Source: a virus. From it: DNA of 64,000 nt. Of the stretch, positions 3,774-64,000 are shown in pieces. Each line of letters starts with the position of its first letter. Within the stretch, counting starts at the first letter, position 1. A model generated the notes under the pieces. The model saw only the letters and a list, made by a program, of their open reading frames with translations, searched no databases and was not told where the DNA came from. Location of the stretch: IMG/VR virus record IMGVR_UViG_3300028920_000050, positions 1-64,000 of that record. The stretch is one strand, 5' to 3'. A program made the position numbers and the translations under genes.

Positions 3774-3808
3774 AATTACTCTCCGTTGCTTGCTTCAAAT
3801 GTAAGATC

Positions 3809-4807
3809 TTACTTTACTACAGAATATTTAATGTTAACATGAAAAAGCCTTTTCTCGTTAATCATGTTCTGTATAATTTTCTTCATATCTGCCTGTTTGT
3901 ACCCTTTTATGGGCAATATGCAGATATTCAACTCCTCGTCCCGCAAAAAAGACTCAATCAGTTTACGGTAAACCACTTCCCGGATCTTATCGTTAAGTGT
4001 TATTTTAAAGAGAGGTTGCTTAACATCAAACTTAATTGTCTTTGTCGGAGTTTTTTCAGTTATTAACTGATAGTCCCCCCACACATTAAGCATATTGAAA
4101 CAAGCAGTACATGCATTACACCACTTGGCCTTACGGTCTGACTTTGAACTGCACACTTTACGTGGTAGGGTCTTGGCACCAAGATGTTTATTAATAATAG
4201 ACATCTTATTAAGAGCATCCTTCTGCATATCAGGATCTGCTTTTATCAACTGTTCCTTCCATGTATTATCATTCTTGTTTTCTTTTATCAGAATGATCTC
4301 CTTTTTACCCTTCATCATCATATACACCTGTGCCTGATAAGCATACTCAGGCCATAGATTAGGATTATCGTAAGACCGCCAGTTCATACTCTTTATTTCA
4401 ATAAGGTAGACCTTCCCGTCATTAAGTGTAATACTGCCGTCAAGTTGTGCTACAATATTCTTGAACTTGTGAAGCCTTTTATCCGCAGCGTCCACCGCCT
4501 TCACCTGTTCCTCAAAAACACAGCTCTTAATCTTACCCTCTTCCTTGGCAAGCTGAATGTAGCCCTGTATCCTGTCATGAGTATCATCCCCGTTATGAAA
4601 TTTGCGGAAGGTGTCAGCAGAAAAAGGATCTAACTCTACATTTAACATCATAAGCACCTGCTTACGCAGACACCCGCCAAGCTGTGACGGATAGATCCCC
4701 ACATGCCTCATACGGTTATGCGTAAAGAAATCTACTATAACCCTGTCAAGTATAGGCAATAACTTCTCATCCGCTTTTGCTTTCTTCATTATTGAATTGA
4801 TACTCAT
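3809..4807 (-). CDS. Cas4-like PD-(D/E)XK exonuclease
   Basis: YPSQLGGC.RK, DG, IEIKS, YQAQVYM and C-terminal C..CxxCxxC Fe-S ligands. Confidence 0.85.
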   Translation of the reverse strand: MSINSIMKKAKADEKLLPILDRVIVDFFTHNRMRHVGIYPSQLGGCLRKQVLMMLNVELDPFSADTFRKFHNGDDTHDRIQGYIQLAKEEGKIKSCVFEEQVKAVDAADKRLHKFKNIVAQLDGSITLNDGKVYLIEIKSMNWRSYDNPNLWPEYAYQAQVYMMMKGKKEIILIKENKNDNTWKEQLIKADPDMQKDALNKMSIINKHLGAKTLPRKVCSSKSDRKAKWCNACTACFNMLNVWGDYQLITEKTPTKTIKFDVKQPLFKITLNDKIREVVYRKLIESFLRDEELNICILPIKGYKQADMKKIIQNMINEKRLFHVNIKYSVVK

Positions 4808-5406
4808 TACTTTCTCCTTATCTCTTTAAATTATTGACACGTTTAATTACATCATCAAGTTCACTGGCAGAAACTACATGACAATCCCACGCCATAGTGG
4901 TTATCTTAAGTCCCTCAATAGGCTTACAGTCTTTAGAGAACATCTGCTGCATAATCCACTCTGCCCCCTTGATATCCATAACCTCAACCGTGAGGATTAA
5001 TCTCTTCTTATCAAGTATGTCCTGTGTTGCTTTCTTGTGCATAGCTTCTATTTTCTTAATAGCATCCTCACCTGGATCTTTAGCCTTTTTTTTCATAGAA
5101 CCTGTCTTTTTACCTATACCTTTATCTTTACCTTTAATTTTTCCCGGCATCTTTTTCCTCCTGTACCTTTTTAATAATTGAAAGTGACCTATTTATCTGT
5201 TCCTGCCACCTTCCACGATCATTTATACCGTGATCCTTATAGAAGTCTGTTATATAAACAATCTTCCCTTTGAGATTAAAAATCAAAACAGACGTATCAT
5301 CATCACTATCCATAAGTAGTTCTTCTTTTGCTTCTTTAAGTGTAGGATACCCCTGCACCTTGGGACACCCGAACCTGTAACATAGTGTAAAAAACTTACG
5401 TTTCAT

Positions 5407-5844
5407 TTATTCCTCCACAAGTGTTACTTTAAGTTTTAAGTTATACTTTTTAAAATCAAGCAACAATACAGGGTTCACCCCTTGTGCGTATGCTTGGCCT
5501 TGGAGCTTGTTCCACATTTCGACAGTAACTGAGATACTTTTTTTATCTGTCGATTTAATGTCATACATATTCTGATCGTCCTTAAGATCACCTTTATCAA
5601 ATGGAGTCGCCCCGCTGTTCTTTGTCTGCTTCAGCCCTAATTTCTTCGACAACTCTTTCTCTCTTCGATTTGCAGTCCGCTTCACTGTATTTCTTTTTCT
5701 TCGTCCAGAAAAGCCCGTACTCTTTGTCATAGAACCACTCCCACCATTTTTTCTTAAGAAACAGGAAGTCACATCCTGCTGCCACATAGCTTCTGAGTTC
5801 CTCTGCCATACTTGGAGTAAGCTTTCCCCAAAAGTAGACATCAA
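5407..5844 (-). CDS. Holliday junction resolvase-like PD-(D/E)XK nuclease (true start probably downstream)
   Basis: RE.ELSK, NSGA, KGD, YDIKST motifs. Confidence 0.6.
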   Translation of the reverse strand: MMSTFGESLLQVWQRNSEAMWQQDVTSCFLRKNGGSGSMTKSTGFSGRRKRNTVKRTANRREKELSKKLGLKQTKNSGATPFDKGDLKDDQNMYDIKSTDKKSISVTVEMWNKLQGQAYAQGVNPVLLLDFKKYNLKLKVTLVEE

Positions 5845-6115
5845 TATAGATCTTTACACGCTGAAGTGCCTTGAACTTATACACCTTTATCTTGGCAGCC
5901 CGAAAATACTTCTTTACTATTTTGCGGAACTCCTTGGTAGTAACAGGTGTTGTGTTAAGACCTATCTCACCCTGATTTATTGATTGCTTCATTCATCCTC
6001 CTCATCCTTCATTGTTTTAACAGTAATAAAAAATAAAATAAGGCCGGAAGCTGACCCAATGCCTAAGCCTATAATTATCCACTTTATTATTCTTATTAAC
6101 TCTTTAGGAACATAG

Positions 6116-6475
6116 TTAATTATGTTGTGTACCATTAATGCCTCCGCAGTCTTTACGAATTATATCACTTGATATTGGCTCAGTGTAATAAATCTCAAGT
6201 GCATAAGTTTCTTCAAGTGCTTCAAACTTATGAAACTGTCCTGGCTTCACACTAGTTTTCTGCCCAGGCAATAGTATAGTAGTATCAGTAAGCTTGTAAT
6301 CTGTTTTCTCTACAGTTACTCTAAGATGACCGCTATCAACATAAAACAGATTGTGCTTATGCTCGTGCTTGTGCATAGAACAGAACCCACCTTTTCCTAT
6401 AAAGATCCTGTGTACCTCACAATTACTATTCTTGAATATCAGTTCTGTGGTTCCCCACACTTTCCCCTCTATCAT
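6116..6475 (-). CDS. Cupin (sugar isomerase-like)
   Basis: KVWG, CSMHKH..KHNLFYV.SG, PGQFHKF cupin motifs. Confidence 0.8.
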   Translation of the reverse strand: MIEGKVWGTTELIFKNSNCEVHRIFIGKGGFCSMHKHEHKHNLFYVDSGHLRVTVEKTDYKLTDTTILLPGQKTSVKPGQFHKFEALEETYALEIYYTEPISSDIIRKDCGGINGTQHN

Positions 6476-6810: not shown

Positions 6811-7279
6811 TACTACCTCCAGTTTCCTTTAGTGCTTTACCTAAGTCATAAGTAAGACCTTCTATCCTTTGTACATGATCATGGTTGACAGTATCGTGCA
6901 TTATAGTCCTGTATTTACTAAGTGACTTTATTGCCTTCTTAATAATTGACTTTAGTATCTTCTTGTGAAGCCTAAGCTTTTCAATTATACCTCTTGCTTC
7001 ATCCCCGCCAACTGCATCATACTTGATTTGTAAGATCTTACATTTATTCTCAAGCTTTTTAATAAGGCAAGGTGCACAGAGACCTGCTCCATGCACTTCG
7101 CCTTTACAACCCGATGTACCACACTGATATCTAGCTACCACATCTGTACTCCTTTCGATCTATTAAATCAAGTATCCTTTGAAGCCACTCTCGATACATT
7201 ATACCTAATTTAAAAGGTATGGCATACCGCTTGTGAACCTTTTTACATATAGGACACTCCCACCCTGTAAGTAAACTCT

Positions 7280-7810
7280 TCATCTTCCCTTCCTGAACTC
7301 TACTATTAATGATGGAAATGTAGCAGGGTTTTTCTTCTTCGTGCCGTAAAGCTTATTAAACTTACCGTCAAGCTTCTTCTGCTTCCATACCCACCGCCAG
7401 TATTTATCCGTACCGAACACCAGCCGGCCAGGAACAAACTGAATGTACTTGACATGCGGACGGAACTTAAGCTTCTTTGCATCCCACACGTAATTATGAT
7501 ACCACTTGGTATCTGTGCGTGCAGCAATAAGGAGAACGGCCACTTTGCACCCGTTCTTCATCACTTCATCATAGGCTTTCTTAACCCACTTCCCCACATC
7601 TTTAAAAGGCGGGTTAATAAAAACCTTCTTACCTTTCCATGACTGCTTAAGACCGTCCTGTTTCTCATTGAAGTATGTTTTACATACTGCATTGTCTTTC
7701 TCAGCACAGGGATCTAAAGTAAACTTGTACTTCTTATTGAGTTCCCGAAACAGATCTCTTGGTGTAGCCCACGCTTGATTTTTACTACTGAACATTAACT
7801 CTTTATTCAT
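7280..7810 (-). CDS. Phage Dam-family DNA N6-adenine methyltransferase
   Basis: W.TP..LF, LDPCA, DGL...W, NPPF catalytic motif, ARTDT.W. Confidence 0.9.
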   Translation of the reverse strand: MNKELMFSSKNQAWATPRDLFRELNKKYKFTLDPCAEKDNAVCKTYFNEKQDGLKQSWKGKKVFINPPFKDVGKWVKKAYDEVMKNGCKVAVLLIAARTDTKWYHNYVWDAKKLKFRPHVKYIQFVPGRLVFGTDKYWRWVWKQKKLDGKFNKLYGTKKKNPATFPSLIVEFRKGR

Positions 7811-9672: not shown

Positions 9673-9696
9673 AAGGTTCCCTCCAAATGTAAGATC

Positions 9697-9855
9697 TTAC
9701 TTTTCACTTTCTTCTTTGCAGTGGAAAAGATACTGCTTGAACAAACAGAACAGAGAACAGAACTTAAGTCCTGGAAAACTTTTATGTGCGATCCATATTT
9801 TCTTCTTAATGTTTAGATATTCTACGCACTTTTTGTAGCTACATTTAACTTTCAT
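9697..9855 (-). CDS. Small Cys-rich (TRASH/YHS-like) protein, 52 aa, not in the ORF track
   Basis: Translated by hand: MKVKCSYKKC...FCSLFC...ESEK*; its TAA stop lies inside a GTAAGATCTTAC palindrome. Confidence 0.55.
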   Translation of the reverse strand: MKVKCSYKKCVEYLNIKKKIWIAHKSFPGLKFCSLFCLFKQYLFHCKEESEK

Positions 9856-14474: not shown

Positions 14475-14492
14475 AAATGTAAGATCTTACAA

Positions 14493-14910: not shown

Positions 14911-15492
14911 TTATACCCCGAATGGATGTTCTATATCTTCAACATCTATATCGTCAAATGCTCCCCAGGTTCCGTCCTCTTTTCTTCTTTTTTCAAACTC
15001 CTCTTTATTGCGTTCATAACGCTCAACATTATTTTCTTTACGAGAAGTCCACGCAAGATTACTCACCACACAGTTATACCTATCAGGTAGTATGTGCCCG
15101 ACCTCATAAGTTTCATACTGAGGATCTACTGGAAGCCAAGCATGAGCTACTACCTGATGTAAACAAAAATGCTTTTTCTTTGAAGGACTCGACCCTACAA
15201 GTCTAACTCTGAAACTAGGATAATCCTGTCGTGGCTGTTTACCTCTCGGCACTATCTTAACAAGTAAATGAGATTTAATGTGACGTACCTTTGCACTTGC
15301 ACTCACTTCATAATTTGTATCAGGTATTTGTTTCCAACATTCAATTTGCAACATAATTAATCCGAGTATAAAAACGTACTTAGCTACAAGTACTCCTACT
15401 ATAGTAATAACTAATATTAAAAAGAAAAAATCAGTCAATAAAATCTTGACCCATGACCAAATGTAAGATATTACTTTTTTACCAGACACCAT
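14911..15492 (-). CDS. NUMOD4-HNH endonuclease with an N-terminal hydrophobic extension
   Basis: ECWKQIP..YEVS, HQVVAHAW, VGH...N....NLAW.S..EN. Confidence 0.75.
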   Translation of the reverse strand: MVSGKKVISYIWSWVKILLTDFFFLILVITIVGVLVAKYVFILGLIMLQIECWKQIPDTNYEVSASAKVRHIKSHLLVKIVPRGKQPRQDYPSFRVRLVGSSPSKKKHFCLHQVVAHAWLPVDPQYETYEVGHILPDRYNCVVSNLAWTSRKENNVERYERNKEEFEKRRKEDGTWGAFDDIDVEDIEHPFGV

Positions 15493-15943
15493 CTATCTCC
15501 GCTTCGATCCATTTTCGTTTAAGCAATCTACGAAAGGCATCTGTGTATTTTTTCTTGCCACACACAGTACGTGCAGCATCAAAACAGTTTTTGATTAATT
15601 CCCGCATAGGTCGTGGGTAAAGACGGTCATGCCCCTTGCCACGATCCTTACCTTTAAACGGAGTTGGCATAAGTATACCTTTGTTCTCCATAAGGCGGAT
15701 CGTAGCAACAGTCATTCCGAGATCCTGTGCAATATGTTGCACCCTAAAAAACTCAACAAGCTTTCCATTGATAACTTCAAAAATAGGAGGAGGGGTCTTA
15801 CGTCTGCGGATCTTAACTCTCTCTTTGAGAGTAATTGCGTTACGTAGATAATAGTCATGGTTACGCTTCTTCCGCTTCGCCCCGATGTCACCCTTTCGGA
15901 TCTTCTTCTCTATGGCTTTTTCAGTATCAAGATCTCGTATCAT
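15479..15943 (-). CDS. MerR-like HTH DNA-binding protein
   Basis: IAQDLGMTVATIRLMENKGIL...GHDRLY. Confidence 0.65.
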   Translation of the reverse strand: MIRDLDTEKAIEKKIRKGDIGAKRKKRNHDYYLRNAITLKERVKIRRRKTPPPIFEVINGKLVEFFRVQHIAQDLGMTVATIRLMENKGILMPTPFKGKDRGKGHDRLYPRPMRELIKNCFDAARTVCGKKKYTDAFRRLLKRKWIEAEIDGVW

Positions 15944-15959
15944 AGTTTCACGTGAAACT
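15944..15959. promoter_or_regulatory. parS-like centromere site
   Basis: AGTTTCACGTGAAACT, a perfect palindrome matching 14 of 16 positions of bacterial parS TGTTTCACGTGAAACA; fills an intergenic gap. Confidence 0.6.
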
Positions 15960-17314: not shown

Positions 17315-19670
17315 TTTCTTCTGGATAACCCTTATCAGCGGTCTTGTCTACATACGCTTTATCTAAAGCCTGTTTATACTTAGACTGAATATCCTCAAGC
17401 TGTTGCTTTACCTTATCAATCAACTCAGCACGCATAGCATAGTTTTTTTCTGTCTCAGCTGCATACATCTTAGCCTTTGCAAAATCCTTCAGAGCACCTG
17501 CCCATAAGCGAACTCCTGTAAGAAATAAAGCAAACGCTAAAATAATGTTAACCCATAATGGTAAATTAAGATCAACCTTCATCTTTTTCCTCCGGTTTAT
17601 TATTATGTTGTAAGTTCGCAAGTTCCTCCTGTCGCTTACGAACCGTTTTAAGTATACTATCAAATACTTCATCAGTATACTTAAGCTTACTAGCCTCTAT
17701 ATCGAAGCCGTCAAAAGACTCAGTTTCCTCCCGCATACCTTCAAGCTGTCTAGTCATAACACCAACAAGGTGCGGGCTGTTAATAAGAACATTATCTATT
17801 ATCTTAAGTATCGGTATAACGACACCCTGTACTACTGTCATAGCCTCATTAACTTCATTATTTTCTGACATCTACTCCCTCCCCCATTTTTTCTTCATCA
17901 GCTGTAGCCTTATAACACTTGCCATCATACACCCGAAGTAACTTATTTAATTTAGGTGAATAACAGTAACCCTGGAACTTCTTGTCCTGCTCATAGTGAT
18001 TAAAAAAGTTAAGTTCATTACGGGCCGATGTTACTGCCAAAGTTACAATAACTGCATCCTTAAAGTACTTCCTCCCCTTAACAGAATGTGCCGGCACTCC
18101 GTCAATAAGATCAATAGGTTTAAGGCGCTTTATCCCGCGGCCTACTCCAATAATCTTCTTCTTTTTGTGAGCCTCTTTAACTCCCTCCACGTAGATCTCT
18201 TTAAGATGCTCCTTGGGGTAAACTACTACAGACTCGTCTGTATCGACCTCCTCCCCAAGATCAGGCTTGTCAGGTGTGTACTTCGGTCTTTCATTCAACT
18301 TCCTATGTAAGATATTACTTTCTGCTTTGCTCTGCATTAGTATTGCTCCTTTTATCTTTTTTAATCCATATCTCAACCGGATGCCCTTTATAGAAAGTGG
18401 CTTCCTGATTAAGTCTTAGAAACTTTGTTTCTTCTACACTTCGCAGATGTTGTATACTCCCCCTCATCACATCAAGCTCCCGCTGTAAACTATCTATCTT
18501 AGCTTGATACCCCTCAATAACTTTATTAAGATTACGGTGGCCTATATGAAGATGTACATAAAACATCACCCACACAGTAAATAGTATGTATATGTAAGCT
18601 TTAAATGTCATGCTGTTTTCCTCTTATCATATAATGCAAGCCTTCTGGAAGCCCCACCATAGGTGTCAAGGTACTCCTCAAGCTGTTCAATAAGAAACTC
18701 ATTAAACTTGATCTGCTTAACTACCTTCCTATACCCGTTATCTGTTGCGAGTATCTTATCAAGATGTTTCTGCCCCTTCTCTTTAAGTATGCGATTTTTA
18801 TTCCTTGTTATATTGGATCGCATCCTTCTATTTTTGTTTTTATAATCCGAAATAAAATGATCAATCCAATACTTAAGGCAACTCGCTTCAGTTTTAAAAA
18901 GCTTGCTAAACTTTGGATCAAACGTAACAGGACAACTACACCCGCTGTATCCAAAACTAAAATTGTAACCTCCCGACCACTTTCCTTCGTGCTCACCAAC
19001 TCGGATAATAAGGTGATCGCACCATCCTTTATCATCCGCTTTGTATATGGTATGAGAAGTTGGTTCAACGCAAACCCCATGGTCGTTCACTTTGAATTTC
19101 TTGTTCTTCATTGATTGCTCCTACTCTCCACTTGGCTGCTTTATGAGTAAATATATCAAACATCTTCTTCGGCATGCAAATGATATCCTTTACTGCCATC
19201 TGCATTATACAAGAAGGATCAGACACCCTTTTAATGTATACAAAATAATCTTTGAACTTGCCCTTCTTAATAATACCTTTTGTAGCTTTAACAAACTCGT
19301 CTAGTCTGTTCATTTAGACTTCCTTGTTATAGTAAACCGCCCCCTAGTCTCCTTTACCTTTATCTTTTTCTTTTCAGACTTTCCTTTAGGGATTATAGGA
19401 GCCGACTCAGTATTACTTGCCCTTCTTCGTTTCTCAGCTTCTTCAAGGATACCACTGAACTCTTCTCGTAATCGTTCCTCTCCTTTGTAGTTAGCAGCAT
19501 GCACACTGTTATCATCAAACAAACACTTGAAGCATAGACCCTTCGGACCTTTTGACGAGAAGCCTACACAATCTGCCTGTCTTGTTTTACAAGAATAACA
19601 CCAGACCTTCTTTCCATTTTTATCAACAAGCTTACCTTTCTCCTCTCTGTATTCAGTATATGGTGCAGGC

Positions 19671-21289: not shown

Positions 21290-22507
21290 TTAGACATAAT
21301 CAAACACCTTTTCATTACCCTTGAGATATTTATCAGGAAGTGATTTAAGTGTTAATCTAGGTTTAGCAATCAACTCAGGAAGTACCTTATCAAGAACACC
21401 ATCACGGATCAACTCTCCCACAATTACTTCAAGATAGAAAGCAATCGCATGCCGGTACTTCTTGTCCGCCATCTTTTCAGGATCAAACTTGCCATTTTCA
21501 ATAATGTAAGATATTACATTTCCATCGTTAATCCTGGCTTTACCGTTTCCACCAGATTTTTTTCTGGCCCTCTCTTCCATCCTGTTTATCACCTTGACAA
21601 TATTGGATGGATGCAAAACAGAAAACGGATTATATTTATAATCCAAATCACGATTAAATAAATAACCGATACAGCTGTCAGTATTGTACTTCTTCGGGTT
21701 CTCATACACATCAATAAGGGCGGGGATTATCTGAGCACAATTCCCTACTATATACTTCTTAAGCTGAACAGATAGTACCTTGTATGTATAGGAGTGCTTG
21801 TACTTCTTCTGGTGGAACATGCCTATAAGTAACCGTGCAACATCTCCCGCCTTCATGTTGTCCCACTCGTTGAAGCTATCCTCAGTAACATACCCGTAGA
21901 ACAATACACAGTCTGTTCCCCCGCCTATCTTGGGTGGCTTGCCGCTTTTGAGGTATCCCTCCGGATAAGCAATACCACACAACTCCGACCTGCGAAGTTT
22001 CTTAGTCTCAGTAGTAAGACCAGGATGTTTCATAGATCCTCCTTTAGAAGAAGAAACATGCTCCGAAGGAGCCATATTGTTTTCTTTCTTTTGTTTTCTT
22101 TTATTGTTTTCTTTTAATGGGTCCAATTTTTGAACCGGATCTGGTCCAATTTTTGAACCGGATCTGGTCCAATTTTTGGACCGGTTCAATTTTTGAACCA
22201 GTGGTTTTTTCCAGTTAATATCGAAGTGCCGTATCCCTCTCGGCCCTGTCTTAACTACTTTTATAGACTTCTTATTAAGAAGTCCGTTTACTGCAGTAAT
22301 AACTGTTCCCTTGGCCATCCCCAATTTCTGCATGAAGTATACAACTGCAAATTGTTTGTTGGGTTGAGTGTAACCAATGTTCTTTCTTACCATCAAGTTT
22401 AATATCTTGCACTCGGCAGCAGTAAAGTGTATTAAGTTATCCAGTATGCAGTTTGGGAAGCGTGTCCAGTTTTCCGTTGGTCTATCTATAGGTATTCTTT
22501 TCGTCAT
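21290..22507 (-). CDS. Replication initiator (lambda O/replisome-organiser-like)
   Basis: N-terminal WTRFPN.ILD plus winged HTH; internal iteron array. Confidence 0.75.
   Translation of the reverse strand: MTKRIPIDRPTENWTRFPNCILDNLIHFTAAECKILNLMVRKNIGYTQPNKQFAVVYFMQKLGMAKGTVITAVNGLLNKKSIKVVKTGPRGIRHFDINWKKPLVQKLNRSKNWTRSGSKIGPDPVQKLDPLKENNKRKQKKENNMAPSEHVSSSKGGSMKHPGLTTETKKLRRSELCGIAYPEGYLKSGKPPKIGGGTDCVLFYGYVTEDSFNEWDNMKAGDVARLLIGMFHQKKYKHSYTYKVLSVQLKKYIVGNCAQIIPALIDVYENPKKYNTDSCIGYLFNRDLDYKYNPFSVLHPSNIVKVINRMEERARKKSGGNGKARINDGNVISYIIENGKFDPEKMADKKYRHAIAFYLEVIVGELIRDGVLDKVLPELIAKPRLTLKSLPDKYLKGNEKVFDYV
22120..22199. repeat. Iteron array (putative origin): four 17-bp GGT(C/T)CAATTTTTG(A/G)ACC units
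   Basis: Units at 22120, 22143, 22166 and 22183, next to an AT-rich tract at 22079-22117. Confidence 0.8.
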
Positions 22508-22533
22508 TTACATTCCCCCATGATTGTAAGATC

Positions 22534-22716
22534 TTACTTTTTCTTTTTAAGATCAGCCAGGGTAATGTTACGTAGATGATCCTGTGAAGTTTTACCTATA
22601 CACTTACACTTATAGTTTAGTTCAAGTGCTTCGTCAATGGTCAGATAAAATGTTATTATCTTCTTTTCGCCTTTAGGCAGCTTCCGCAGTTCTTTTCCTG
22701 TTAAGGGCTTTGACAT
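22534..22716 (-). CDS. Small ribbon-helix-helix-like protein
   Basis: IITFYLT.DE strand-helix-helix pattern, 60 aa. Confidence 0.45.
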   Translation of the reverse strand: MSKPLTGKELRKLPKGEKKIITFYLTIDEALELNYKCKCIGKTSQDHLRNITLADLKKKK

Positions 22717-24380: not shown

Positions 24381-24751
24381 CGTGCGGAGGTACTAGCTTC
24401 TGACCGTGAGCCGTTGTAGCAGCCCTTGGGTCTGGTATTAATTGTTCTTCTGGACCACCGAACATAAGTTCGTTAAGTATATTCAACAGTTTTGAGAAAG
24501 AGTCAATGTACTCAGAATTGACATTAACGACTTGAAACTCTTTTTTTGTTTCAATACTTATAGTGAAAAGTGACTCATCAACCAACTGGTGCTGGAGTAC
24601 AGCACTGCCGTCAGGCATAAGGGTTTCGGATAATCTTACCACTGCGTTTTCTGCAACGTCTTTACTTTCAGCTTCCCAAGCTTTGATCTTGAGTTCATAC
24701 TTTTCAAAAGGTTTATCTTTGGACATAATTTCCTCCAATGTAAGATATTAC

Positions 24752-26085: not shown

Positions 26086-26476
26086 TCATTACTCCTTTTA
26101 CTTTTTTAATGGCCTCGTCAATAATCAATAAGTTCATCATCTTCCTCTCTTACAACCAGCCCTATAGAATACTTATAATCCCAGTCTTTTTGTTCGATAC
26201 TTTTCTTTGTTTGAATACACTCTAACAAAGGACAATCTGCACCCTCAATTCCCCACGATGTATAAATATATGGATTCGGTTTCCCTAATTTAATGTCACC
26301 ATCAGGACAGGTACAACTAGAAAATGGTTTTAACCTGTGTTCCCTGTATATTGTCCCAAAGACATGCTTATCGGTTGGTACCCATTTTACTTTCATAACT
26401 CCCCCTTTACTTTTTTAATATATCATTTATCCAAGCCCCCGACCGGATTGTCGGGGGCATTATGTAAGATCTTACT

Positions 26477-28129: not shown

Positions 28130-28831
28130 TCACCCATTGATTAACTCCAGCATTTTTTTCTTGTACATCTCTCCGAAAAGAGACTGTTGACCTGTCGCCA
28201 ACGTCTTTTTAAAAAGAGTTTTAAGACAAGCCATCCGTGCAGCCATATTGTTATAAAAAACAATGTTATGTTTTGTTTTCCAACAATGACTGCACGAATG
28301 GCAGTGTGAATTACACACGAAACCATTTTTATGTGGTGCCATGTGCTTCACAATACCTGTAGAATGAGTGTCGAGTGTTGAAGTCAACTTACAGGATTTG
28401 TTGATCTTCTGAGTACTCTCGTCTACAGAGAAGAAAATATTGAAATTCGCGGGGGCTTTGGAGAAATCAATATCTGTATTCCTTGTATAAGCCAGGAATA
28501 GGATCTTCGGGAACTCCTTGGCCGCTTTTACCCACGCATTGTAATATCTTACATTATAAAACTCACCAGAACTGTGCAGACGTATCCTTTTAACTCCAGT
28601 CTCAAGGATCGCTTCTTCGATCTGAGAACATAGATTTTGTGCAAAGTTACTACTCTGGCTCCACTCCATATTTCTCTGGAGAGCATCCTTGGTTGTCTTA
28701 TAGCAAAACCGCCCACGTTTCGCATAGCAGTTTTTGTTGCATATTGGGGTCCGGTATTTCTCACATGTACTTCTCGGTAAATTGAAACACCAAACATATT
28801 TACCTAGTTTACTTACATAGTTGGTCAGCAT
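28130..28831 (-). CDS. Gp88-like (radical-SAM-related) protein
   Basis: FNLP..TC...C...CYA, IRLHSSGEFY, AYTR, C-terminal CxxCxxC. Confidence 0.75.
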   Translation of the reverse strand: MLTNYVSKLGKYVWCFNLPRSTCEKYRTPICNKNCYAKRGRFCYKTTKDALQRNMEWSQSSNFAQNLCSQIEEAILETGVKRIRLHSSGEFYNVRYYNAWVKAAKEFPKILFLAYTRNTDIDFSKAPANFNIFFSVDESTQKINKSCKLTSTLDTHSTGIVKHMAPHKNGFVCNSHCHSCSHCWKTKHNIVFYNNMAARMACLKTLFKKTLATGQQSLFGEMYKKKMLELING

Positions 28832-30548: not shown

Positions 30549-30588
30549 TTTAATTCTCCTTTTTATTTTAATTTGTAAGATCTTACTT

Positions 30589-33576: not shown

Positions 33577-33978
33577 TATTAATATCTACATTTGTTTTTC
33601 CGCACTCCCTGCAAAACTCTCCGTCTCTACCATAAGCAGCTACAATAAAAGTTTCAGTATTATCTGACATGCTAAACCTCCGTATATTCAAGTATTTTTT
33701 TAATAAGATCTTTTTTAGTTGAAAAAGTACAAACTACTGATGGTTCTATGTAGTCAGCACCTTCACCGTAAGCTTCGTTTTTCATTTTATAAATAACTTC
33801 ATCTATACCTTCTTTATCAAGAACATCACGAGCAGACACTTTTCTCCAATGTATAGATCCATGTTCCTGATCGGGCATTTTTAATGTATACATTACAAAT
33901 AAATATAAATACATAGCTTACTCCTTTACGTCCGCCCCCAAAAAAAAGAGGGGACGGACAGAATTGTAAGATCTTACT

Positions 33979-34782: not shown

Positions 34783-34818
34783 AGATTTACTCCTTTTTAT
34801 TTTAATTTATGTAAGATA

Positions 34819-36612: not shown

Positions 36613-37107
36613 GATTTAACCTCCACTATACGATAATCCTCTCTAGGGTGCTTCATGATGTCACACACTTCATCAATTTCCTTTTGGGCTTCCGCTTTAC
36701 TTCGGAAAACCATAGGTTCACCTTCTTCTGTCCAAGGTGCATTATCCCATCCGTAAATGAAATGAAGCTGAACTTTATAGTAAGAAACCGGTGGTGTGTA
36801 ATGTACTTGAGGACACTTTAGCAGATCATCACTGTCTGTTATTTTCTTACCGTCTGCATCAGTCAGTACATATCCGCAGTGGTGACACTGGAACCGATCA
36901 ACCAGACCACCTGTTACCTGTTCCTCTGTAGGACTGTATTCAACAGATGCGTACCTTCCGTTATTGTTTTCATTATTTTCAACATGAATGATATCTATAA
37001 CGGTAGAGTGTGTGGCATCTACAACAACCTCTTCAACCCGCCTTTGCTTGTTACAGTTAGGACAATTAAATACTGCTTCTTCCATGTCATTACTCCTTTG
37101 TAAGATC

Positions 37108-37644
37108 TTACAATAAGCTATTCTTTTTAAAAGAATAGTAGTCGTTCCCAGGACCCCCTACAATGATATGGTCAAGTATAGTGAGTCCAAGGAGTTCCGC
37201 TGCTTTTTTAACCCTCTTGGTAAATAGTATATCCTCTTCTGATGGGGACGCATTTCCCGAAGGATGATTATGTATCATAATGAAGCTCCTGCAATTTGTC
37301 TTGAGCAAAAGTATAAATAAATCAGCAGGAGGAACTTCAATAGTCCTGTGACCACCTGTAGCTACTTTCTTTTTTATAAGTAATTTGTTTTTATTGTCAA
37401 CTCCAATTATAATGATACTCTCATTGTGCTCGAAATCGTTTTTTACTAAATCAAACACATTATCTGGAGATGTTATATAAGGAGCGTTTAGCTCAGCAAG
37501 CTTTAGGTAGAAATACTTTACTTTAAACTTATCCTTGTACTTCATTTTCCACCTCTTCTTCATCTTCTTCGTACTCCCAAAAGCCAAAGTCAGATCCGTC
37601 ACCTTCATGCGCTCCGAAGGTTGTACCATAAGGAGCAATTTCAT
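37108..37644 (-). CDS. radC: RadC/JAB domain protein
   Basis: HNHPSG...PS.ED...T, LDHIIVG. Confidence 0.9.
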   Translation of the reverse strand: MKLLLMVQPSERMKVTDLTLAFGSTKKMKKRWKMKYKDKFKVKYFYLKLAELNAPYITSPDNVFDLVKNDFEHNESIIIIGVDNKNKLLIKKKVATGGHRTIEVPPADLFILLLKTNCRSFIMIHNHPSGNASPSEEDILFTKRVKKAAELLGLTILDHIIVGGPGNDYYSFKKNSLL

Positions 37645-38325: not shown

Positions 38326-38721
38326 TTAGCAAGCCTTTTTGTAAGATCTTACTTTTCTACTTTTTTCGTAGCGGTAAGTATCTTTATCTTTATGAGTGGA
38401 AGAGGACTCAACAATAATACTATCCCTGAACCATGTAACACCTGTAAACCTGTGTACATCTCCGGGCTTTACTCTCATGTAGTCTCCCTTGCGGAGAACA
38501 TATATTTTATTATTGAGTTCCATGCGGACCTTGCCGCAAAGAATGATGAATACTTCATCTTTTAATTTATGATAGTGCAGACTGCACTGAAAACCTGATT
38601 TTAATACAAGTACTTTCGTACAATAGTCACTATTAACTATAAATCCTTCGAGACCCCACACTTTACGTGCGATCTCTATAAAGAAGTTTTCTTTAAATTG
38701 ACGTTTAAGATTTTTCCACAT
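38326..38721 (-). CDS. Cupin (sugar isomerase-like)
   Basis: KVWG.E, CSLHYHKLKDE.F, PGDVHRF. Confidence 0.8.
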   Translation of the reverse strand: MWKNLKRQFKENFFIEIARKVWGLEGFIVNSDYCTKVLVLKSGFQCSLHYHKLKDEVFIILCGKVRMELNNKIYVLRKGDYMRVKPGDVHRFTGVTWFRDSIIVESSSTHKDKDTYRYEKSRKVRSYKKAC

Positions 38722-40969
38722 AATAATTTCCTCTAAAAAGGGGTTTCCGTACCAAACGGTATCTGCTGGTCGGATGCGTGCAAGGCACGGAAACCCGTTT
38801 ACCTAAAATGTTTTGGAGTTGAATTAGCTTACCGTAACAGTATTCATGTTCCGGTAAATCCGTGTACGCTGTTTGTATTGTTTGTTTCTCTCGTTGATAA
38901 ATGCACCAAGCAGTTTGCCAAGTGATTTACGGAGAGCTGTCCACCCTTCTTTTGGCTTAGGGTGGTTAGCAAGATAAAGAAGATCATTCTTTGCGGCAAT
39001 AGGCAGTGTGGAGATAGAATAGACAACGGCAGCAAGCTTCTTTGCATGAGCGTCCTTTGCTTCTCCCATATCTTTTCTGGCCTTGGTTATTTCCTTCACA
39101 AGGTTATCCTTCCGTGTTTTAATTATTGACTGGACTTCCTTTTCCGGCTTTTCACCTTCAACTGAAGCAAGCTCCAGTTTAATTAATCTTATCGCTTCAT
39201 CACGCATGATGTACTCCTTAAAGTAAAATAAAGGCAGCCTAGCTACTCAACTGCCGGGGTAGTTTTCAATATAGTGGAGCGGGGGGCCGTGCCAGTATTC
39301 CTGACACTGCAGCCTTTGGTGACCGCTTCCCAGGGGGCATTATTTTCGCAACTTAAGAGGACTCACTGGCATAACGTTCCGTCTTAAGACTACCTTTCCT
39401 CTCCCTGCCCTACCAGAGGGCGGGGTTTGCAGGAGGCTCCGCAACTTGCAAGTCTGTATAAAAAAGAGTGTAAGTATAAAGTCATTGGTCAAAAAATAAA
39501 TGATGTAAGATCTTACATCAGGCGACTGAACCGTTACAGGCCCCAACGTAAGATCTTACATCTGCGCGGCTAATTATACCCTGTAAAGTCCGCTATCGGA
39601 ACAGGGTGACGGAATTTCAGGATCAAAAGCATCCCGGAGTATCCGTAGATGTTTTCTCCCTAGCCGTGTCCGCTTGCGGAGAGTATTAAGCTGATCTTGC
39701 TTCTTCTTTTTCTTTGGTTTCTTCTGCTTTTTCATTGGAAGCCCCCTCAGCTTTTTTAGCTTTATCCTCAAGGCGCTTCTTTTTAGCGGCCTCAAGCTCA
39801 ACCTTTTTAGCTTCTTTCCGTTTGATAAGCTCGTCCTCTATGCGCTGAACAGTATCAACACTGTGATACTCTCCCGGTTTCCATAAAGGGTGCTCAACAT
39901 TACCGGTAATTCGGAGGTCCGTGGTGAGTTTACCGGCTGTATGGAACTCCTCAGTAAGAACTTTCTCAATGAGATCGAGCTTACCGACATAGATACGCTT
40001 GCGGATACCTGTAGTACCGCTGCCCTTGGTAAAGGCAATACGGACGGCAGGTTTACCGTAGTGGCTGACGTTTTGGATGTTGACATGAACACACTTGATG
40101 TTCATTTCTTCGATAATTTTATCTTTCATCTTTTTTGTCTCCTTGTTTATTATTATAGTAACACTGTTGGTGGTGGACTATTAATTTGTCTACCTCATGT
40201 TCAGGTAACTTCCGTAGGGTAGTACCTGTATTGGAGTTCTTGTATTTCTTGCACCGTTTTAATGGACAATCTTTTTTAGGGGTGGGGCACTCTGTAAGGT
40301 AGGTCTTTATCATGTGCATAGATACAAGCATATCTATCATCCCCTAACTCCCGCAAAGAAGGAATACACTTTAAACTTAAACTTCCGCCAAGTCATTTTC
40401 TTTTTCCAGTATGCGATCCTGTCAAGCACCTTTTTTTCAAGATCTTTATAATAGTCGATCTGCTCACAGCTGTCCGGACATGTCTTGCGGTCGGCGGACC
40501 GAAGGCGGAAGCCCTGGCAATTATTGCATATCGTATCACACGCTTCATTAAGAGCGTTGGACATCTTGACATGCAGGTCGTCATACTTTTTAGGTTTCAT
40601 AATTACTCCAAAACAAATGTGAGGAGACCTACAATACCTCAGCGTTACAGATCTCCTCACAATAATTAGCTAGATTATTTGCTTGTATAATAATTTGTTT
40701 TTATATTAGGTATTTTGTGTAGCTACCGCATAACACCCCCTTGCCTACTCTCAGGCGGTCCGGTTGTTTTTTGGTTGGCATACTTGCCGCTAAAGGTTTA
40801 AATATAAGGTTTGTGTTTCCACATGAAATACTATTATACAATAAATGTAACATCTTACAAGTCCCCTCTATGTAACAGAGAAAAAAGAGCAGTTGTAATT
40901 AAGCAAAAATAAAAGTAAGACCCTACACCCTGAACTGCAGCTGGGAGGCCCCGCGATCCAGAATGTAAG

Positions 40970-40997
40970 ATCTTACAATTTATAATATTTGTGGCAA
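40970..40997 (-). promoter_or_regulatory. Putative promoter whose -10 box lies inside the palindrome
   Basis: TTGCCA-16 bp-TAAGAT. Confidence 0.45.
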
Positions 40998-41279: not shown

Positions 41280-41327
41280 AAAAAAATACCCGGAAAGGAT
41301 TATTATTTTTAATCCCTTCCGGGTATT
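41280..41327 (-). terminator. Intrinsic terminator after 41388..42284
   Basis: AATACCCGGAA/TTCCGGGTATT stem plus a T7 tract on the minus strand. Confidence 0.75.
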
Positions 41328-41387
41328 GTAATGTAAGATCTTACAATCGAAATTGTAAGATCTTACATTTAGCAGGAAATGAAATGA

Positions 41388-42284
41388 TTATTTTTTTAAC
41401 TTGCGGGTAATGGTGCGCTCATAATTTTCGGTAACCTTTTTGATATAATCAGTACAGGATTTTTCAACCTGTTTCAATTTATCTTTACCGATTTTGATCT
41501 TTAAAATGTCAGATACAATGTCAACAGCATTTTCAGCCAATAACATTTTACAGATCATTTCTTTTTGATCATTAGATTTTTTGTTTTCCTTTTTGATACT
41601 GTCTCGGTCAATTTGTTTTGACATTTCACTGATCATTTTTTCACGTTCTAAAATTGCATTGTGCTGTTTATCAATTTTTTCACGTTCTTTATTATCGGTG
41701 ATTTTTGCCGTATTTGGTAATAGATTTACTTCTTTTTTTGCCTGATCTATTCCGAGCTTGCAAATATACTTTTTATATTTGCTATCATCTTTTAAATTGC
41801 CGTTACCACTTGCAATATAGGTGATCAGCTTTTTGATGCTATCATCATTTAACTGATTTTTCTTGACCGTCTTTGCTAAGTTCATTAGAACCGAGTACGG
41901 TACATTTGTACCAAGTTCAATCTGAAAATTAGCAAAATACCCGGCTGAAATTAATTTCATTACTGCATTTTGTTTGACATGTAAACGGCTGAAATATTCT
42001 TTCCAGTATTCATCCACGACCGAAGATATTGACGGTTTTTTGGAATAATTGTCAGGATTTTTTTTATAATCTGTTAACTTTTCTGTCAACAGATCAGCAG
42101 TAAAATTATGTAACATGGCATGGTACACGATTTTACTTGCATTTTCATATTTTGACATGGTAATGATCTTTTTGAATTGATCATTACGATTGTTAACTAC
42201 CGTTAACATATTGCCCATGTCAATAGATGATTTAAAGATTTTGTCCGTGTCGGATTTTGATACGATTGTTTGATTTTTATTCAT
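41388..42284 (-). CDS. Stand-alone first early gene, putative helical DNA-binding protein
   Basis: Own promoter and terminator; W.EYF....A.MKLI and VPYSVL..LA are weakly reminiscent of ParB/DUF3102-type HTH regions. Confidence 0.55.
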   Translation of the reverse strand: MNKNQTIVSKSDTDKIFKSSIDMGNMLTVVNNRNDQFKKIITMSKYENASKIVYHAMLHNFTADLLTEKLTDYKKNPDNYSKKPSISSVVDEYWKEYFSRLHVKQNAVMKLISAGYFANFQIELGTNVPYSVLMNLAKTVKKNQLNDDSIKKLITYIASGNGNLKDDSKYKKYICKLGIDQAKKEVNLLPNTAKITDNKEREKIDKQHNAILEREKMISEMSKQIDRDSIKKENKKSNDQKEMICKMLLAENAVDIVSDILKIKIGKDKLKQVEKSCTDYIKKVTENYERTITRKLKK

Positions 42285-42398
42285 AATATTTTTCCTTTTA
42301 TTTTAATTTAGTTAAAATGTAATATCTTACATTCTATATAAAAAATAAAATGTAATATTACATTTTTACAGGATCACAACATGCTGATCCTATTCTTA

Positions 42399-42426
42399 AT
42401 TGTATCATGATTATAGTTTTTGTCAA
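42399..42426 (-). promoter_or_regulatory. Sigma70-type early promoter
   Basis: TTGACA-16 bp-TACAAT with TGn extension, flanked by GTAATATTAC palindromes. Confidence 0.7.
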
Positions 42427-42644
42427 GTTTAATTTTTATCAATTTTGTAATATTACAAAAATCCGATACAGTAACCCGGAACCGTGATCCCGGTACTGGA
42501 GATTGAAGGACACCCCCGACGCCGTCAGAGGGTCCGGGTCCCTATGTACTTGAAGCTGAGAACTTTAAAGGATTTAGATTTTAAGTTAGCAATACATAAA
42601 CATATCCAACACACTTTAAAACACACTTTGCAGCACACTCTTAC

Positions 42645-42873: not shown

Positions 42874-43186
42874 ATCTTGACACTTAAACAATAATACAAT
42901 GTAAGACCTTACATAATAGGTATGTATACCTATAAAGTATGTCTAAGTGTCAAGTGTTGATCGCTGTCATGATGTGCTTAGAGATCCCGATTATATGCGT
43001 AATACCACTGTGATCATGTTAAATAATAGGGTAGATCTGCTGTGGATCTGAGGGCAATACACTACTACATAGGTCTCTATATAGGGGGCATGTAGAGGGG
43101 TTTACCCGTATTCCCCCGCCCTGGCTACACAGAGGCTTTCTATGGGACGTTCTCAGGGAGGGTCTGCATATTGGGCCTACATACAG

Positions 43187-45030: not shown

Positions 45031-45074
45031 AATGAAAGAGATAAATGTAAGAACTTACATTTATCTCTTTCATT
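45031..45074. repeat. Perfect 21-bp inverted repeat centred on a palindrome variant (GTAAGAACTTAC)
   Basis: AATGAAAGAGATAAATGTAAG-AA-CTTACATTTATCTCTTTCATT. Confidence 0.9.
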
Positions 45075-47158: not shown

Positions 47159-47273
47159 ACAGACTCCTTGCTAATGTAAGATCTTACATTCAGTTAATAA
47201 AATGGGGTTCTTCGTGCAGGACAGCGTTATATAATACGGATCGTCTTACTATTATTATAATGTAAAATCTCAA

Positions 47274-49914: not shown

Positions 49915-49915
49915 G

Positions 49916-54308: not shown

Positions 54309-54904
54309 TGAACTTCCTTATCTAAAATGTAATATCTTACATTTATGCCTGGGAGTAGAACTCCATAACGGCAGATGTTACATCAACATGCTCATCAACA
54401 GGTTTACCTGTATTAAGCTTTTTGTTGACGAAGGCTATTAACCTCATTGTCCCTTTCGGGGGGCCTTTTTTAGCAGGCGCTTTTTTAGTAGCCGATTTCT
54501 TCTTTACTTTAGCTTTAGGTTTAGCTTTTCCTTTCAGCTTATCCTTAACCTTGGCTACTACACTTTTCTTTTTTTTTGGTTTTGCTTTCGCCATAGCTTT
54601 CCTCCTTATAGTCTTTTAGTAAGTTCATCAATGCCTTCACTCATACCCACATCAATAAGCTTATCAACAGCAGGGTCAATAGCTCCGGCATTAATCCTCT
54701 TCTTCAGTCTGTCTGCAAGACGGGGTGCAAGCTCATTTTTGATCTTGCTTTTAATCATGGGCTTACCCCACGTAAGCAGAGCGTAGCCAACACGTTTAAA
54801 AAACCCTTTAAACTTGGCTCTCCATCCAGTTGACCACCGCTCCTTACGAGCGGCTCTGCGTGCTGCACGTGCGGCACGTCTTTCTTCTCTTGATCTTCCC
54901 ATAT

Positions 54905-61224: not shown

Positions 61225-61235
61225 ATTAAATCTCC

Positions 61236-62233: not shown

Positions 62234-62280
62234 CTTCTTTCTCCTATTGAATAGTTTTGAAAGAAACATAACGTACACCT

Positions 62281-62724
62281 TTATTTTGAAAATAGTTTCA
62301 ACAGTAATGTAAAAAATAAACCTACGGTAGCTCCTGAACCTATAGCAAGTCCAACGAGTTTCCATATTGATAAAGATACTTTCTCAAGTTTTCCTTCTGC
62401 GATAGAAACACGTTTGTCAATCTCTTTTCCGTATTTCTTCTCAGACTCCTTGAAGTCGATTAACTCTTTAGCTTGATTTGCAATCTCCTGTTCTATCTTT
62501 ATAATTTTATCGTGATCCTTCTGCCAGTTATCCTTAAGTTCTGTCATTGTATTCTCAAGACGACTTATATCATTTTTAATATTTGTATAATTATGTTTTA
62601 CTAAAGTAGCTACAGATCCTATATCCTTGCTCAGCGACCCTGTGACAGATTTTATATTTTCTCTGATGCCCTCAAACGCTGATTTGAGCATCTCATCCAT
62701 GACAACTTTAACTTCATCAGGCAA
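62281..62724 (-). CDS. Coiled-coil protein with C-terminal TM (holin/hemolysin-like)
   Basis: Heptad repeats, then WKLVGLAIGSGATVGLFFTLLL; adjacent to the endolysin. Confidence 0.5.
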   Translation of the reverse strand: MPDEVKVVMDEMLKSAFEGIRENIKSVTGSLSKDIGSVATLVKHNYTNIKNDISRLENTMTELKDNWQKDHDKIIKIEQEIANQAKELIDFKESEKKYGKEIDKRVSIAEGKLEKVSLSIWKLVGLAIGSGATVGLFFTLLLKLFSK

Positions 62725-62736
62725 TTTAATTCCCTC

Positions 62737-63660
62737 CTAAATAAGTAGCTCCGGTAAAAAGCTATTCGCCCACTGCTCTCCTATTATCTTGTAGGTTTGA
62801 AGATATTTGTTTTTAACTTTATCGAGATCCATCAGTTTATTCGGTATTCTCCCGTCTACCCTGAAAACATTAAGACCAAGTTCCTCTGCATCATTAACCT
62901 GTTCCCATATAGCCTGCTCACGTGCTATCGGTAAGAAGTTTTTTATCTGACGTATAAACCCTTGTCTCTCTTCTGTTCCAAGATTAGTATAGCCACACCC
63001 ACAGGAGAGTATAAAATAATTAGATCCTGCTTTAAGCCTTCTGGTTTCTATGTAAGCTTGCATAAGTGTACAACTTTGTGTACCACATCCGCCATCTGTC
63101 CATATACCACCCTCTTTATCTCCGGACTTAAGAACATCTTTTTTGTCCTCAAAGTACCCAAAATAAGTCGGCGCTGAATATGTTGCCATAACAGGAAAGG
63201 CAGTAATAATATCTTTATACTTTTTCTTATAAGATTTAAAAAAATGAGTAAGCTTAGAGTCCTTCATATTAATTCCAGTAACAACAAGCTTTATCTTTGC
63301 TTTATTCATAGGAAAATGAAGATACTTTAACATAAGAGCATCAGCGTACCCACGCTTGTACCTAGATCCTGTAAACCATGTTGCAGGATTAAAAAGCCCA
63401 AGAAATCTCTTCTTAAATATCTTTTTAAGTTCCTTAAGATACATATCTAAGATCTTTGATGCAGGCATACCCGAAGCAATAAGAGCAGCGGTTATTCCTC
63501 CGGTAGATGTGCCTATAACCAGATCAAATATCTTGTGACATGGTTTACCCAGTGCTTTTTCAAGTCTTGAAAGAAAAGCAAGAAACATTACACCCTTCGC
63601 CCCGCCACCGTCAAGCTGAAGTACTTTTAACTTTTTATTATATTTAGATTTTAATTTCAT
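62737..63660 (-). CDS. Patatin-like phospholipase
   Basis: LDGGGAKG, GTSTGG (GxSxG), SAPTYF, DGG. Confidence 0.92.
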   Translation of the reverse strand: MKLKSKYNKKLKVLQLDGGGAKGVMFLAFLSRLEKALGKPCHKIFDLVIGTSTGGITAALIASGMPASKILDMYLKELKKIFKKRFLGLFNPATWFTGSRYKRGYADALMLKYLHFPMNKAKIKLVVTGINMKDSKLTHFFKSYKKKYKDIITAFPVMATYSAPTYFGYFEDKKDVLKSGDKEGGIWTDGGCGTQSCTLMQAYIETRRLKAGSNYFILSCGCGYTNLGTEERQGFIRQIKNFLPIAREQAIWEQVNDAEELGLNVFRVDGRIPNKLMDLDKVKNKYLQTYKIIGEQWANSFLPELLI

Positions 63661-64000
63661 TCTTTACTCCTTAAATGTAAGATCTTACATTTTAATAATA
63701 TATTGTATTAAGATCATGAATACTACTGCCACCCCCTGCCTGTCCTATTGCCATGTCTGCTGCACGCACAACAAGATCAGCTTGCGTATAAGAAGAGCCT
63801 TTGTACACACTTCCATTTCTTGCTATATGTATGTACGAATTATTTCCATTGAAAGCAGTTATAAATGCAGAACGGATATAAGCAAGTGGAAGCTTTCCTT
63901 GTGATCCATAAAAAGTTATCCACTGTATACCATCAAACTCTGCTCCCGCAAAAGTATCCCAATTACGGGGAGAAGGATGTGTCATACTAGGTCCAGGACT

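Follow-up and report, generated by a model that had tools for sequence, protein, structure and literature searches.

The published case of a genome-wide array of short palindromes in phages is that of the Cluster O mycobacteriophages. In Corndog, a 17-bp palindrome (TGTTCGGNNNCCGAACA) occurs in 34 copies, which share invariant arms and vary in the centre; the other genomes searched lack the palindrome, for which the authors inferred a dimeric binder without assigning a function (PMC4351075). Here we describe a comparable array in the virus record IMGVR_UViG_3300028920_000050 of IMG/VR, a linear sequence of 101,394 bp whose first 64 kb form the stretch analysed in detail (the window; positions are window coordinates unless stated otherwise). 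The repeated element is an 18-bp dyad, AATGTAAGATCTTACATT, with 37 copies in the whole contig. We propose, with moderate confidence, that these copies are genome-wide operators on double-stranded DNA (dsDNA) for one two-fold symmetric, dimeric, sequence-specific protein. The completeness of the record is estimated at 82%; the remaining 18% is absent from the contig, and all negative domain results given below refer to the 82% that is present.

The array resembles that of Cluster O in its more than 30 copies of one dyad with invariant arms and a variable centre, which makes Cluster O the closest published case, and also in that many copies lie in short intergenic gaps or at the 5´ ends of genes and a few lie near SigA-like promoters (PMC4351075). 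The two arrays differ in sequence and in host group, and the layout of the site is 7-3-7 in Cluster O and 7-4-7 here. About a third of the Corndog copies lie inside genes, whereas 3–4 of the 37 copies do so here and most abut a stop codon. The stoperators of Cluster A (L5 gp71 and relatives) are asymmetric 13-bp sites, which are bound by a monomer, oriented with transcription and employed for prophage silencing; 20–35 intergenic sites are accompanied by an operator at the early promoter, and the repressor blocks initiation as well as elongation (PMC5559632, PMC9283540). Many sites in short intergenic gaps are likewise combined with copies at an early promoter in the present phage. However, the present site is a perfect 18-bp dyad, and lysogeny genes were not found in the contig. 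The T1-like lytic phages contain a mostly intergenic 22-bp repeat of unknown role (20 copies in T1 and 16 in Stevie) together with a Dam-family methylase that shares its Pfam family with the present one (PMC4319613). In contrast to the present motif, the T1 repeat is asymmetric and oriented with transcription.

Among the palindromic phage arrays that we found, none has a binder or a purpose shown by experiment. The IncP-1 plasmid RK2 carries 12 KorB and 7 KorA palindromic sites, which are dispersed, some at promoters and some far from them, and serve global repressors; KorB is a ParB-family protein. The likeness lies in short palindromic, here putative, operators scattered over a mobile genome, but RK2 is a plasmid and no ParB_N domain (PF02195) is present here. 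A phage-wide palindrome pattern is already known and would not surprise a phage specialist. The present case is clean (37 copies, invariant arms, junction placement, a density gradient and overlaps with early promoters) and is therefore a good model for array function, notably for the question of whether such arrays silence transcription units in order, as a timing device, in an apparently lytic phage.

An 18-bp dyad with invariant arms

The exact 12-mer GTAAGATCTTAC occurs 20 times in the window, compared with a mean of 0.01 in shuffled sequence, and 22 times in the whole contig. The pattern GTAA-N4-TTAC occurs 34 times in the window against 1.57 expected; 31 of these sites belong to the family, which consists of the 20 exact copies and 11 copies with one central change, and the other three are chance-like. 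On the plus strand, the variant centres in the window are GATA (five copies), TATC (three copies), CATC, GACC and GAAC. The whole contig contains 37 family members against about 0.01 expected. A preliminary description of the window had reported 21 exact copies and 10 variants, with invariant arms and an expectation well under one by chance. The family of 31, the arms and the low expectation are all reproduced here, whereas the split is 20 and 11.

The logo of the 37 copies reveals that the real unit is the 18-bp dyad AATGTAAGATCTTACATT, in line with the longer arms (AATGTAA...TTACATT) noted previously. The information content is symmetric over all 18 positions, flanks included. The single asymmetry, seen in 10 copies in which coding sequence extends into the site, is an A in place of T at position -1. 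The GTAA and TTAC arms are invariant in 37/37 copies, with no compensatory changes, and variation is almost confined to positions 5 and 8 of the 12-mer (G to T in eight copies, C to A in four, and three singletons). The central AT is found in 35 of the 37 copies and CG in none; the central tetranucleotide is GATC in 22 copies.

With up to two mismatches to the 18-mer, 28 sites were observed and none in triplet-preserving shuffles, which bears out the enrichment over shuffled sequence that the preliminary description had put forward as a check. Up to three mismatches, 36 copies are recovered; the 37th copy has four mismatches, and the arms are intact in all. Matches with a mismatched arm appear only at the four-mismatch level, where triplet shuffles also score, and a tail of degenerate copies is absent. 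When arm spacings of 0–8 bp were compared, only the spacing of 4 bp was enriched (40 versus 2.8). Scans with a 16-mer of the motif over IMG/VR (three contigs inspected) and 185,579 species genomes returned only single, chance-level matches, and analogous palindromes were not found in about 100 loci of distant relatives; judged by the scans, the motif appears to be specific to this phage lineage.

Position of the copies relative to genes and promoters

All plausible genes lie on the minus strand, and 91% of the contig is coding. In the direction of transcription, the head, tail and glycan (late) block (101 kb to 43.3 kb, minus strand) is followed by a largely non-coding control hub (43.3–39.2 kb), by small early genes that include those of RadC, SSB and DUF932 proteins (39 kb to 26 kb, minus strand), and by the replication block (26 kb to 1, minus strand), which encodes helicases, an O-like initiator, a primase, PolA, a UvsX-like recombinase and a Dam-family methylase. 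The density of the motif per 10 kb falls from 10.4 in the hub and early genes to 3.5 in the replication block and to 1.5 in the late block, and the peak at 30–43 kb that had been described is present.

The 37 copies were classed from the reading frames around each. Thirty of them lie in gaps, in hub non-coding DNA or across a stop codon: eight are in the non-coding DNA of the hub, six supply the TAA stop of the upstream gene, 13 start 1–4 nt after a stop codon, two (45047 and 91740) form the centre of a longer perfect palindrome that begins right after the stop codon, and one (24740) follows a promoter-like site. Three more copies lie in the last 5–17 codons of a gene, directly before the next start, and three are deep inside genes (21506, 28541 and 66529); the coding or intergenic status of copy 7030 is ambiguous. 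The probability of at most four internal copies among 37 in a 91% coding genome is about 1e-30. The distance to the downstream start codon is loose (3–51 nt), and the upstream stop is almost always adjacent. The junction bias of the preliminary description is therefore confirmed, and its six genes with a TAA stop from the motif (3809, 9697, 18315, 22534, 34819 and 37108) agree with the reading frames, as do its copies close to stop codons, of which the contig holds 13 with the stop 1–4 nt upstream in addition to the six. Among the four copies that it had placed in coding sequence, 21506 and 28541 are truly internal, whereas 32851 lies in the last 13 codons of its gene and 7030 is the ambiguous one.

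In the following, the coordinates are those of the 12-mer, and copies are exact unless called variants. The TAA stop is supplied by 3801..3812 (to gene 3809-4807), 9689..9700 (with a start codon 16 nt downstream), the variant 18307..18318, 22526..22537 (18 nt upstream of the start of the O-like initiator), the variant 34811..34822 and 37100..37111, where the Shine-Dalgarno sequence (SD) begins 2 nt downstream. The stop codon lies 1 nt upstream of 26464..26475, which is followed by a GC-rich hairpin, and of 33966..33977, which is also followed by a hairpin. It lies 2 nt upstream of 14479..14490 (with an ATG 4 nt downstream that lacks an SD), 30575..30586 (followed by an A-rich leader and an SD), 36299..36310, the variant 54329..54340 and 47176..47187, an exact 18-mer with a start 17 nt downstream. 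Another exact 18-mer, 63677..63688, has the stop 3 nt upstream and a start 16 nt downstream. A variant in one half-site, 15463..15474, lies 4 nt after the stop of the MerR-like gene, and the variant 45047-45058 is the centre of a 38-bp perfect palindrome (45034..45071).

The last codons of genes contain 31998..32009 (gene 31993-32367; followed by an A-rich leader and an SD), 32851..32862 (gene 32812-33576; the next start is 22 nt on) and 38341..38352 (the cupin gene). The two variants deep inside genes in the window are 21506..21517, in the O-like replication initiator gene, and 28541..28552, in gene 28130-28831; the ambiguous copy is 7030..7041.

Besides the motif, only the SD and the A-rich leader TAAAATAAAAAAGGAG are enriched among intergenic words. 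Five early junctions (30550-30590, 31970-32010, 34780-34825, 36270-36312 and 42285-42330) share the motif followed by this leader, and the composite resembles a duplicated regulatory cassette; the PeSL cassettes of T4-like phages are a comparable case. Elsewhere in the contig, an apparent 500-nt gap before copy 98589 is occupied by the gene of a SpoVS-family protein, whose end lies 2 nt before the motif. This 102-aa protein with an Alba-like fold (L104:14603-14911, genome 98603-98911, minus strand) scores just above the Pfam threshold. Its gene is located between a RuvC-like gene and a gene for a Lys-rich 153-aa protein, upstream of the portal gene, and the protein may bind nucleic acid.

In the hub, the best sigma70-like promoter of the region (TTGACA-16-TACAAT with TG; 42399..42426, minus strand) precedes the gene of a 298-aa protein. 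It is flanked by a full copy and by the short variant TGTAATATTACA, which occurs twice and only here. The full copy is the variant 42319..42330 in the 5´ leader of the gene. One short variant, with a 2-bp centre, is located downstream of the promoter at 42351..42362, 32 bp from 42319, and the other lies upstream of the -35 at 42446..42457, 95 bp from 42351. At the far end of the gene, 41333..41344 and 41355..41366 form a tandem, 22 bp apart, between the stop codon and the strong intrinsic terminator that immediately follows (41285..41327, minus strand). Past the terminator, 40965..40976 provides the -10 of a promoter-like site, TTGCCA-16-TAAGAT (40997-40970), and an arm of the variant 40847..40858 is the -35 of another, TTGTAA-16-TATAAT (40860-40833). 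In the replication block, the variant 24740..24751 abuts the -10 of TTGACA-17-TAGGAT (24780-24752). The consensus matches at all three promoter contacts that the preliminary description had listed (24740, 40847 and 40965) are present. Overall, promoter-like sites are overlapped by 8 of the 37 copies, compared with 3.8 at random positions (p about 0.03).

Two further copies in the hub, 39505..39516 and 39548..39559, are paired 43 bp apart in GC-rich non-coding DNA, and the former is followed by a T-run. They belong to a GC-rich, apparently structured non-coding stretch of about 480 bp between early genes (39210-39690), which has no Rfam match and may be a small RNA. The variant 42901..42912 lies in a 0.9-kb non-coding stretch (42285-43185) after the strong terminator of the late operon (about 43185-43230). 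This stretch has repeated AAAACGGGCGGGAG...GGCCC hairpins and may be an origin or a genome end.

A proposed dimeric DNA-binding protein and the alternatives

The symmetry of the site, its invariant arms and the fixed 4-bp spacing, together with the weakness of the hairpin, helical phasing and overlap with promoters, make a dimeric dsDNA-binding protein, as proposed in the preliminary description, the best reading. Four close pairs are separated, centre to centre, by 22, 32, 43 and 95 bp, which correspond to 2.1, 3.05, 4.1 and 9.05 helical turns; a fifth pair, 118 bp apart, is out of phase. The chance that at least four of five pairs fall within 0.1 turn of a whole number is about 0.7%. We infer that a protein binds these sites and that the effect of binding is repression. 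In the early hub (39.5–43 kb), host-type early promoters would be covered by the bound protein at the -35, the -10 or the start region, and looping between phased sites would be possible. At about 25 junctions, where the motif lies between a stop codon and a ribosome site, a bound dimer would impede RNA polymerase during elongation or interfere with weak internal promoters. In sum, early and middle transcription would be shut off in a graded manner in the lytic cycle, as is suggested by the decrease in site density from early through replication to late genes.

Such a temporal shut-off appears preferable to prophage silencing. A search of all six frames of the contig, which covers 82% of the genome, gave no tyrosine integrase (Phage_integrase), no resolvase or other serine recombinase and no ParB_N domain, and the site is symmetric, so that a prophage-silencing stoperator is unsupported. 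Thus, of the overall interpretation in the preliminary description, the dimeric dsDNA binder is retained, and the strict analogy with L5-type stoperators is not supported, nor are two of the binders proposed with it, the 298-aa protein and a ribbon-helix-helix (RHH) pair.

Several observations weigh against operators. Most copies are far from any recognisable promoter; lack of nearby promoters led the Cluster O authors to doubt a transcriptional role of their palindrome (PMC4351075). No other repeated intergenic motif fit for a middle or late promoter was found, which leaves the palindrome as the only candidate for a promoter-associated element. Copies 45047 and 91740 are at the tip of long perfect hairpins, which a dsDNA operator does not need. 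The helical phasing is based on only five pairs, and no examined protein (the MerR-family protein, the O-like initiator, the 298-aa protein or the RHH pair) is tied to the motif.

The long hairpins count in favour of an element that acts in RNA. A hairpin or sequence in the polycistronic transcript would then be read by a phage RNA-binding protein or endoribonuclease, and through it the cistrons would be processed, stabilised or controlled at the level of translation. With the genes on one strand, nearly every copy would be transcribed; the motif is found just upstream of ribosome sites and directly after stop codons, and its variation falls at positions 1 and 4 of the would-be loop. However, the hairpin is marginal: the isolated copies have a median energy of -2.0 kcal/mol, the energy is -0.8 or weaker in eleven of them, and pairing of the arms in the local ensemble is seen for only 14 of the 37 contexts. 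The would-be stem is invariant and never co-varies while the would-be loop does vary, which is the reverse of typical hairpin-protein recognition. Copies 40965, 40847 and 24740 and the bracketing copies lie in or around promoter hexamers and so would act where they are not transcribed as hairpins; several hub copies, which form hexamers or precede a -35 past a strong terminator, are unlikely to be present in RNA, where helical phasing would also be meaningless. A symmetric dimer on dsDNA is favoured over an RNA or cruciform element on account of the symmetry, the lack of stem co-variation, the weak hairpin, the phasing and the promoter-embedded copies, and we regard the RNA element as unlikely. 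The promoter hexamers raise another question, namely whether the motif is itself the core of a phage-specific promoter, with TAAGAT as a -10-like hexamer and a start at the conserved A after the 12-mer, read either by the host polymerase together with a phage factor or by a polymerase whose gene lies in the absent 18%. TAAGAT is indeed the -10 of two canonical-looking promoters, the one at 40997-40970 and a strong sigma70-like promoter at 16389-16417 (TTGACA-17-TAAGAT with TGn), in which the -10 region is half of the motif (GTAAGATCTA). The gene blocks between motifs are translationally coupled, the SD and the A-rich leader are the only other repeated intergenic motifs, and three genes (14479, 98589 and 100602) start 3–4 nt after the 12-mer without an SD, like leaderless mRNAs. 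All three starts have a stop codon 17–18 nt upstream, however, and are therefore explained by termination and re-initiation. A promoter also leaves the perfect dyad symmetry unexplained; no -35 or other upstream signal is conserved, the distance to the start codon varies from 3 to 51 nt, and the tandem pair 41333/41355, between a stop codon and a canonical terminator, would fire into the terminator. The six frames of the contig yielded neither a sigma factor nor a T7-type polymerase, and the large proteins scanned match no polymerase family. On balance, this reading is unlikely.

Dispersal along the whole contig would also be expected of DNA sites that organise, replicate, segregate or package the genome, in the manner of matS, SlmA, Noc or KorB sites, of initiator titration, or of Dam/SeqA-type control via the central GATC. 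The 22 copies with a central GATC coexist with a gene for a Dam-family methyltransferase, one copy precedes the O-like initiator gene and another lies within it, and a true parS core is present in the genome. Nevertheless, the junction bias and the early-to-late gradient are predicted by a transcription-linked role and not by even coverage, 12 copies lack GATC, the ParB_N domain was not found in the contig, and copies coincide with promoter hexamers; a non-transcriptional function has a low probability. Host factors offer a last alternative, in which the array recruits or titrates a host regulator such as a quorum-sensing receptor of the LuxR type. LuxR binds a 20-bp dyad, CTG-N10-CAG, in which positions 3–5 and 16–18, including C/G at positions 3 and 18, are critical. 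In a literature search, the 12-mer matched only the fully palindromic lux box for Aliivibrio logei LuxR2, ACCTGTAAGATCTTACAGGT, whose 14-bp core is identical to that of the present motif (TGTAAGATCTTACA), with the same half-site spacing and central GATC (PMC13398223). The half-site register is that of the V. fischeri lux box, and LuxR represses when the box lies inside a promoter (PMC4444344). The lysis and glycan genes suggest a Gram-negative host, and the contig encodes no GerE or autoinducer-binding domain and no LuxR-type gene, so such a binder would be the host's. The outer CTG/CAG of the lux box is, however, ATG/CAT in all 37 copies (no C at -2 and no G at +13), and the motif is too near to start codons for the usual -42.5 activation geometry. 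Similar half-sites also occur in unrelated operator families, cre and GlnR/TnrA. Sites for a host factor are accordingly very improbable, and it is more improbable still that a host LuxR-type receptor, or a close variant, gates the phage transcription programme or is titrated by it through the 37 lux-box cores. If that were true, the array would couple lytic phage expression to host cell density without a phage-encoded receptor.

The dimeric operator that we favour can be set beside other dyads. The CcpA cre consensus, TGNAANCGNTNNCA, has a central CG, and the motif departs from it only there, with CG in 0/37 copies. The GlnR/TnrA site is TGTNA-N7-TNACA; its half-sites resemble TGTAA/TTACA, but its spacing is 3 bp longer. 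In MerR operators, the dyad occupies an overlong 19–20 bp spacer between the -35 and the -10. The present 18-bp 7-4-7 dyad is like the mer operator, and a MerR-family protein is encoded, but no flanking hexamers are conserved here; junction 34811 alone fits TTGAAA-N19-TAAAAT by eye.

Four other ideas were discarded. An N4-type hairpin promoter would need a giant polymerase, which was not found, and the hairpins are weak; no recombinase was found for integron-like attC boundaries; avoidance of GATC or restriction does not explain the motif, GATC being enriched 1.4-fold in the whole contig; and the motif is too near to start codons for a class II activator site.

Candidate binding proteins and genomic context

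The sole recognisable sequence-specific regulator is P0129, a MerR-family winged helix-turn-helix (HTH) protein of 154 aa (15479..15943, minus strand). Of its 45 homologues, 42 match MerR_1, its family profile matches MerR, BrlR, CadR, CueR and GlnR in the PDB (E down to 8.5e-8), and a structure search with its model (predicted local distance difference test, pLDDT, of 87) retrieves only MerR-family regulators. Because MerR proteins bind dyads as dimers and the layout of the mer operator is 7-4-7, P0129 is a reasonable candidate binder. The MerR-like assignment in the preliminary description is thus substantiated, while nothing ties P0129 to the motif. However, a different palindrome, a perfect 14-bp parS core (GTTTCACGTGAAAC, 15944-15957), lies directly before the P0129 ATG and occupies the entire gap that separates it from a stop codon. 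This core may be the true target of P0129, as an autoregulatory operator, or a host ParB site. Most of the distant P0129 homologues have 250–310 aa and match P0129 twice; they are tandem double MerR-HTH proteins, which could read a dyad as a single chain. The strong promoter at 16389-16417 is upstream of the operon that holds the P0129 gene.

The O-like replication initiator (21290..22507, minus strand) is a second candidate by analogy with lambda O, whose dimers bind dyad iterons; its gene has one motif copy 18 nt upstream and one inside. The first early gene (41388..42284, minus strand) encodes the 298-aa orphan and is bracketed by five sites, and its product had been put forward as the binder. 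The protein has no homologue among 5.8 billion proteins and no family match, and its single-sequence fold is unusable (pLDDT 38), so that nothing speaks for this proposal. The RHH pair suggested at 22534/22673 has no family match either. GerE (PF00196), autoinducer-binding (PF03472) and HTH_3 domains were not detected in the contig. The binder could also be an unrecognised phage protein or a host factor. The central GATC of 22 copies is a possible substrate of the Dam-family adenine methyltransferase (7280..7810, minus strand).

By sequence comparison, the phage is an orphan: among the matches listed, relatives of its PolA in IMG/VR and in a metagenome collection are at most 35% identical. Closer relatives are known as proteins, with 66% identity to P0002 (on a 21-kb contig) and 50% to P0124 (on a 34.5-kb contig), and likewise for P0130 and P0131; the contigs that encode these relatives are not in IMG/VR. 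The portal gives 27% matches to Streptomyces and Bacillus phages, and the endolysin has matches in Gammaproteobacteria. The endolysin, with GH108 and PG_binding_3 domains, adjoins a patatin-like phospholipase (61631-63660), which, together with the other lysis and glycan genes, suggests a Gram-negative host. A further public assembly (Logan/ENA) contains a near-identical contig of 101,383 bp. The phage was thus recovered on two or more occasions with nearly the same length, and the ends may be real. The window contains no tRNA and no Rfam match.

The late block encodes a portal, a tape measure, a baseplate J-like protein, a GT9 glycosyltransferase, two Capsule_synth proteins, the GH108 endolysin and the patatin-like protein. 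The early block includes DUF932, SSB and RadC-like JAB proteins at 33979-37644, a set characteristic of the anti-restriction or leading regions that conjugative elements carry. Among 4-bp palindromes, CGCG (0.14 of expectation), CTAG (0.20), GCGC (0.29), TCGA (0.30) and AATT (0.43) are depleted over the whole contig, and this depletion, together with the Dam-family methylase (7280-7810), suggests restriction avoidance. The repertoire for sugar chemistry is large (47274-51411; L104:5915-7264; 13722-14474; 6116-6475; 38326-38721) and includes two tandem Capsule_synth (KpsS/KpsC-like) paralogues, two methyltransferases, a B12 radical SAM enzyme, a GT9 heptosyltransferase-like protein, a PfkB-like kinase and two cupins.

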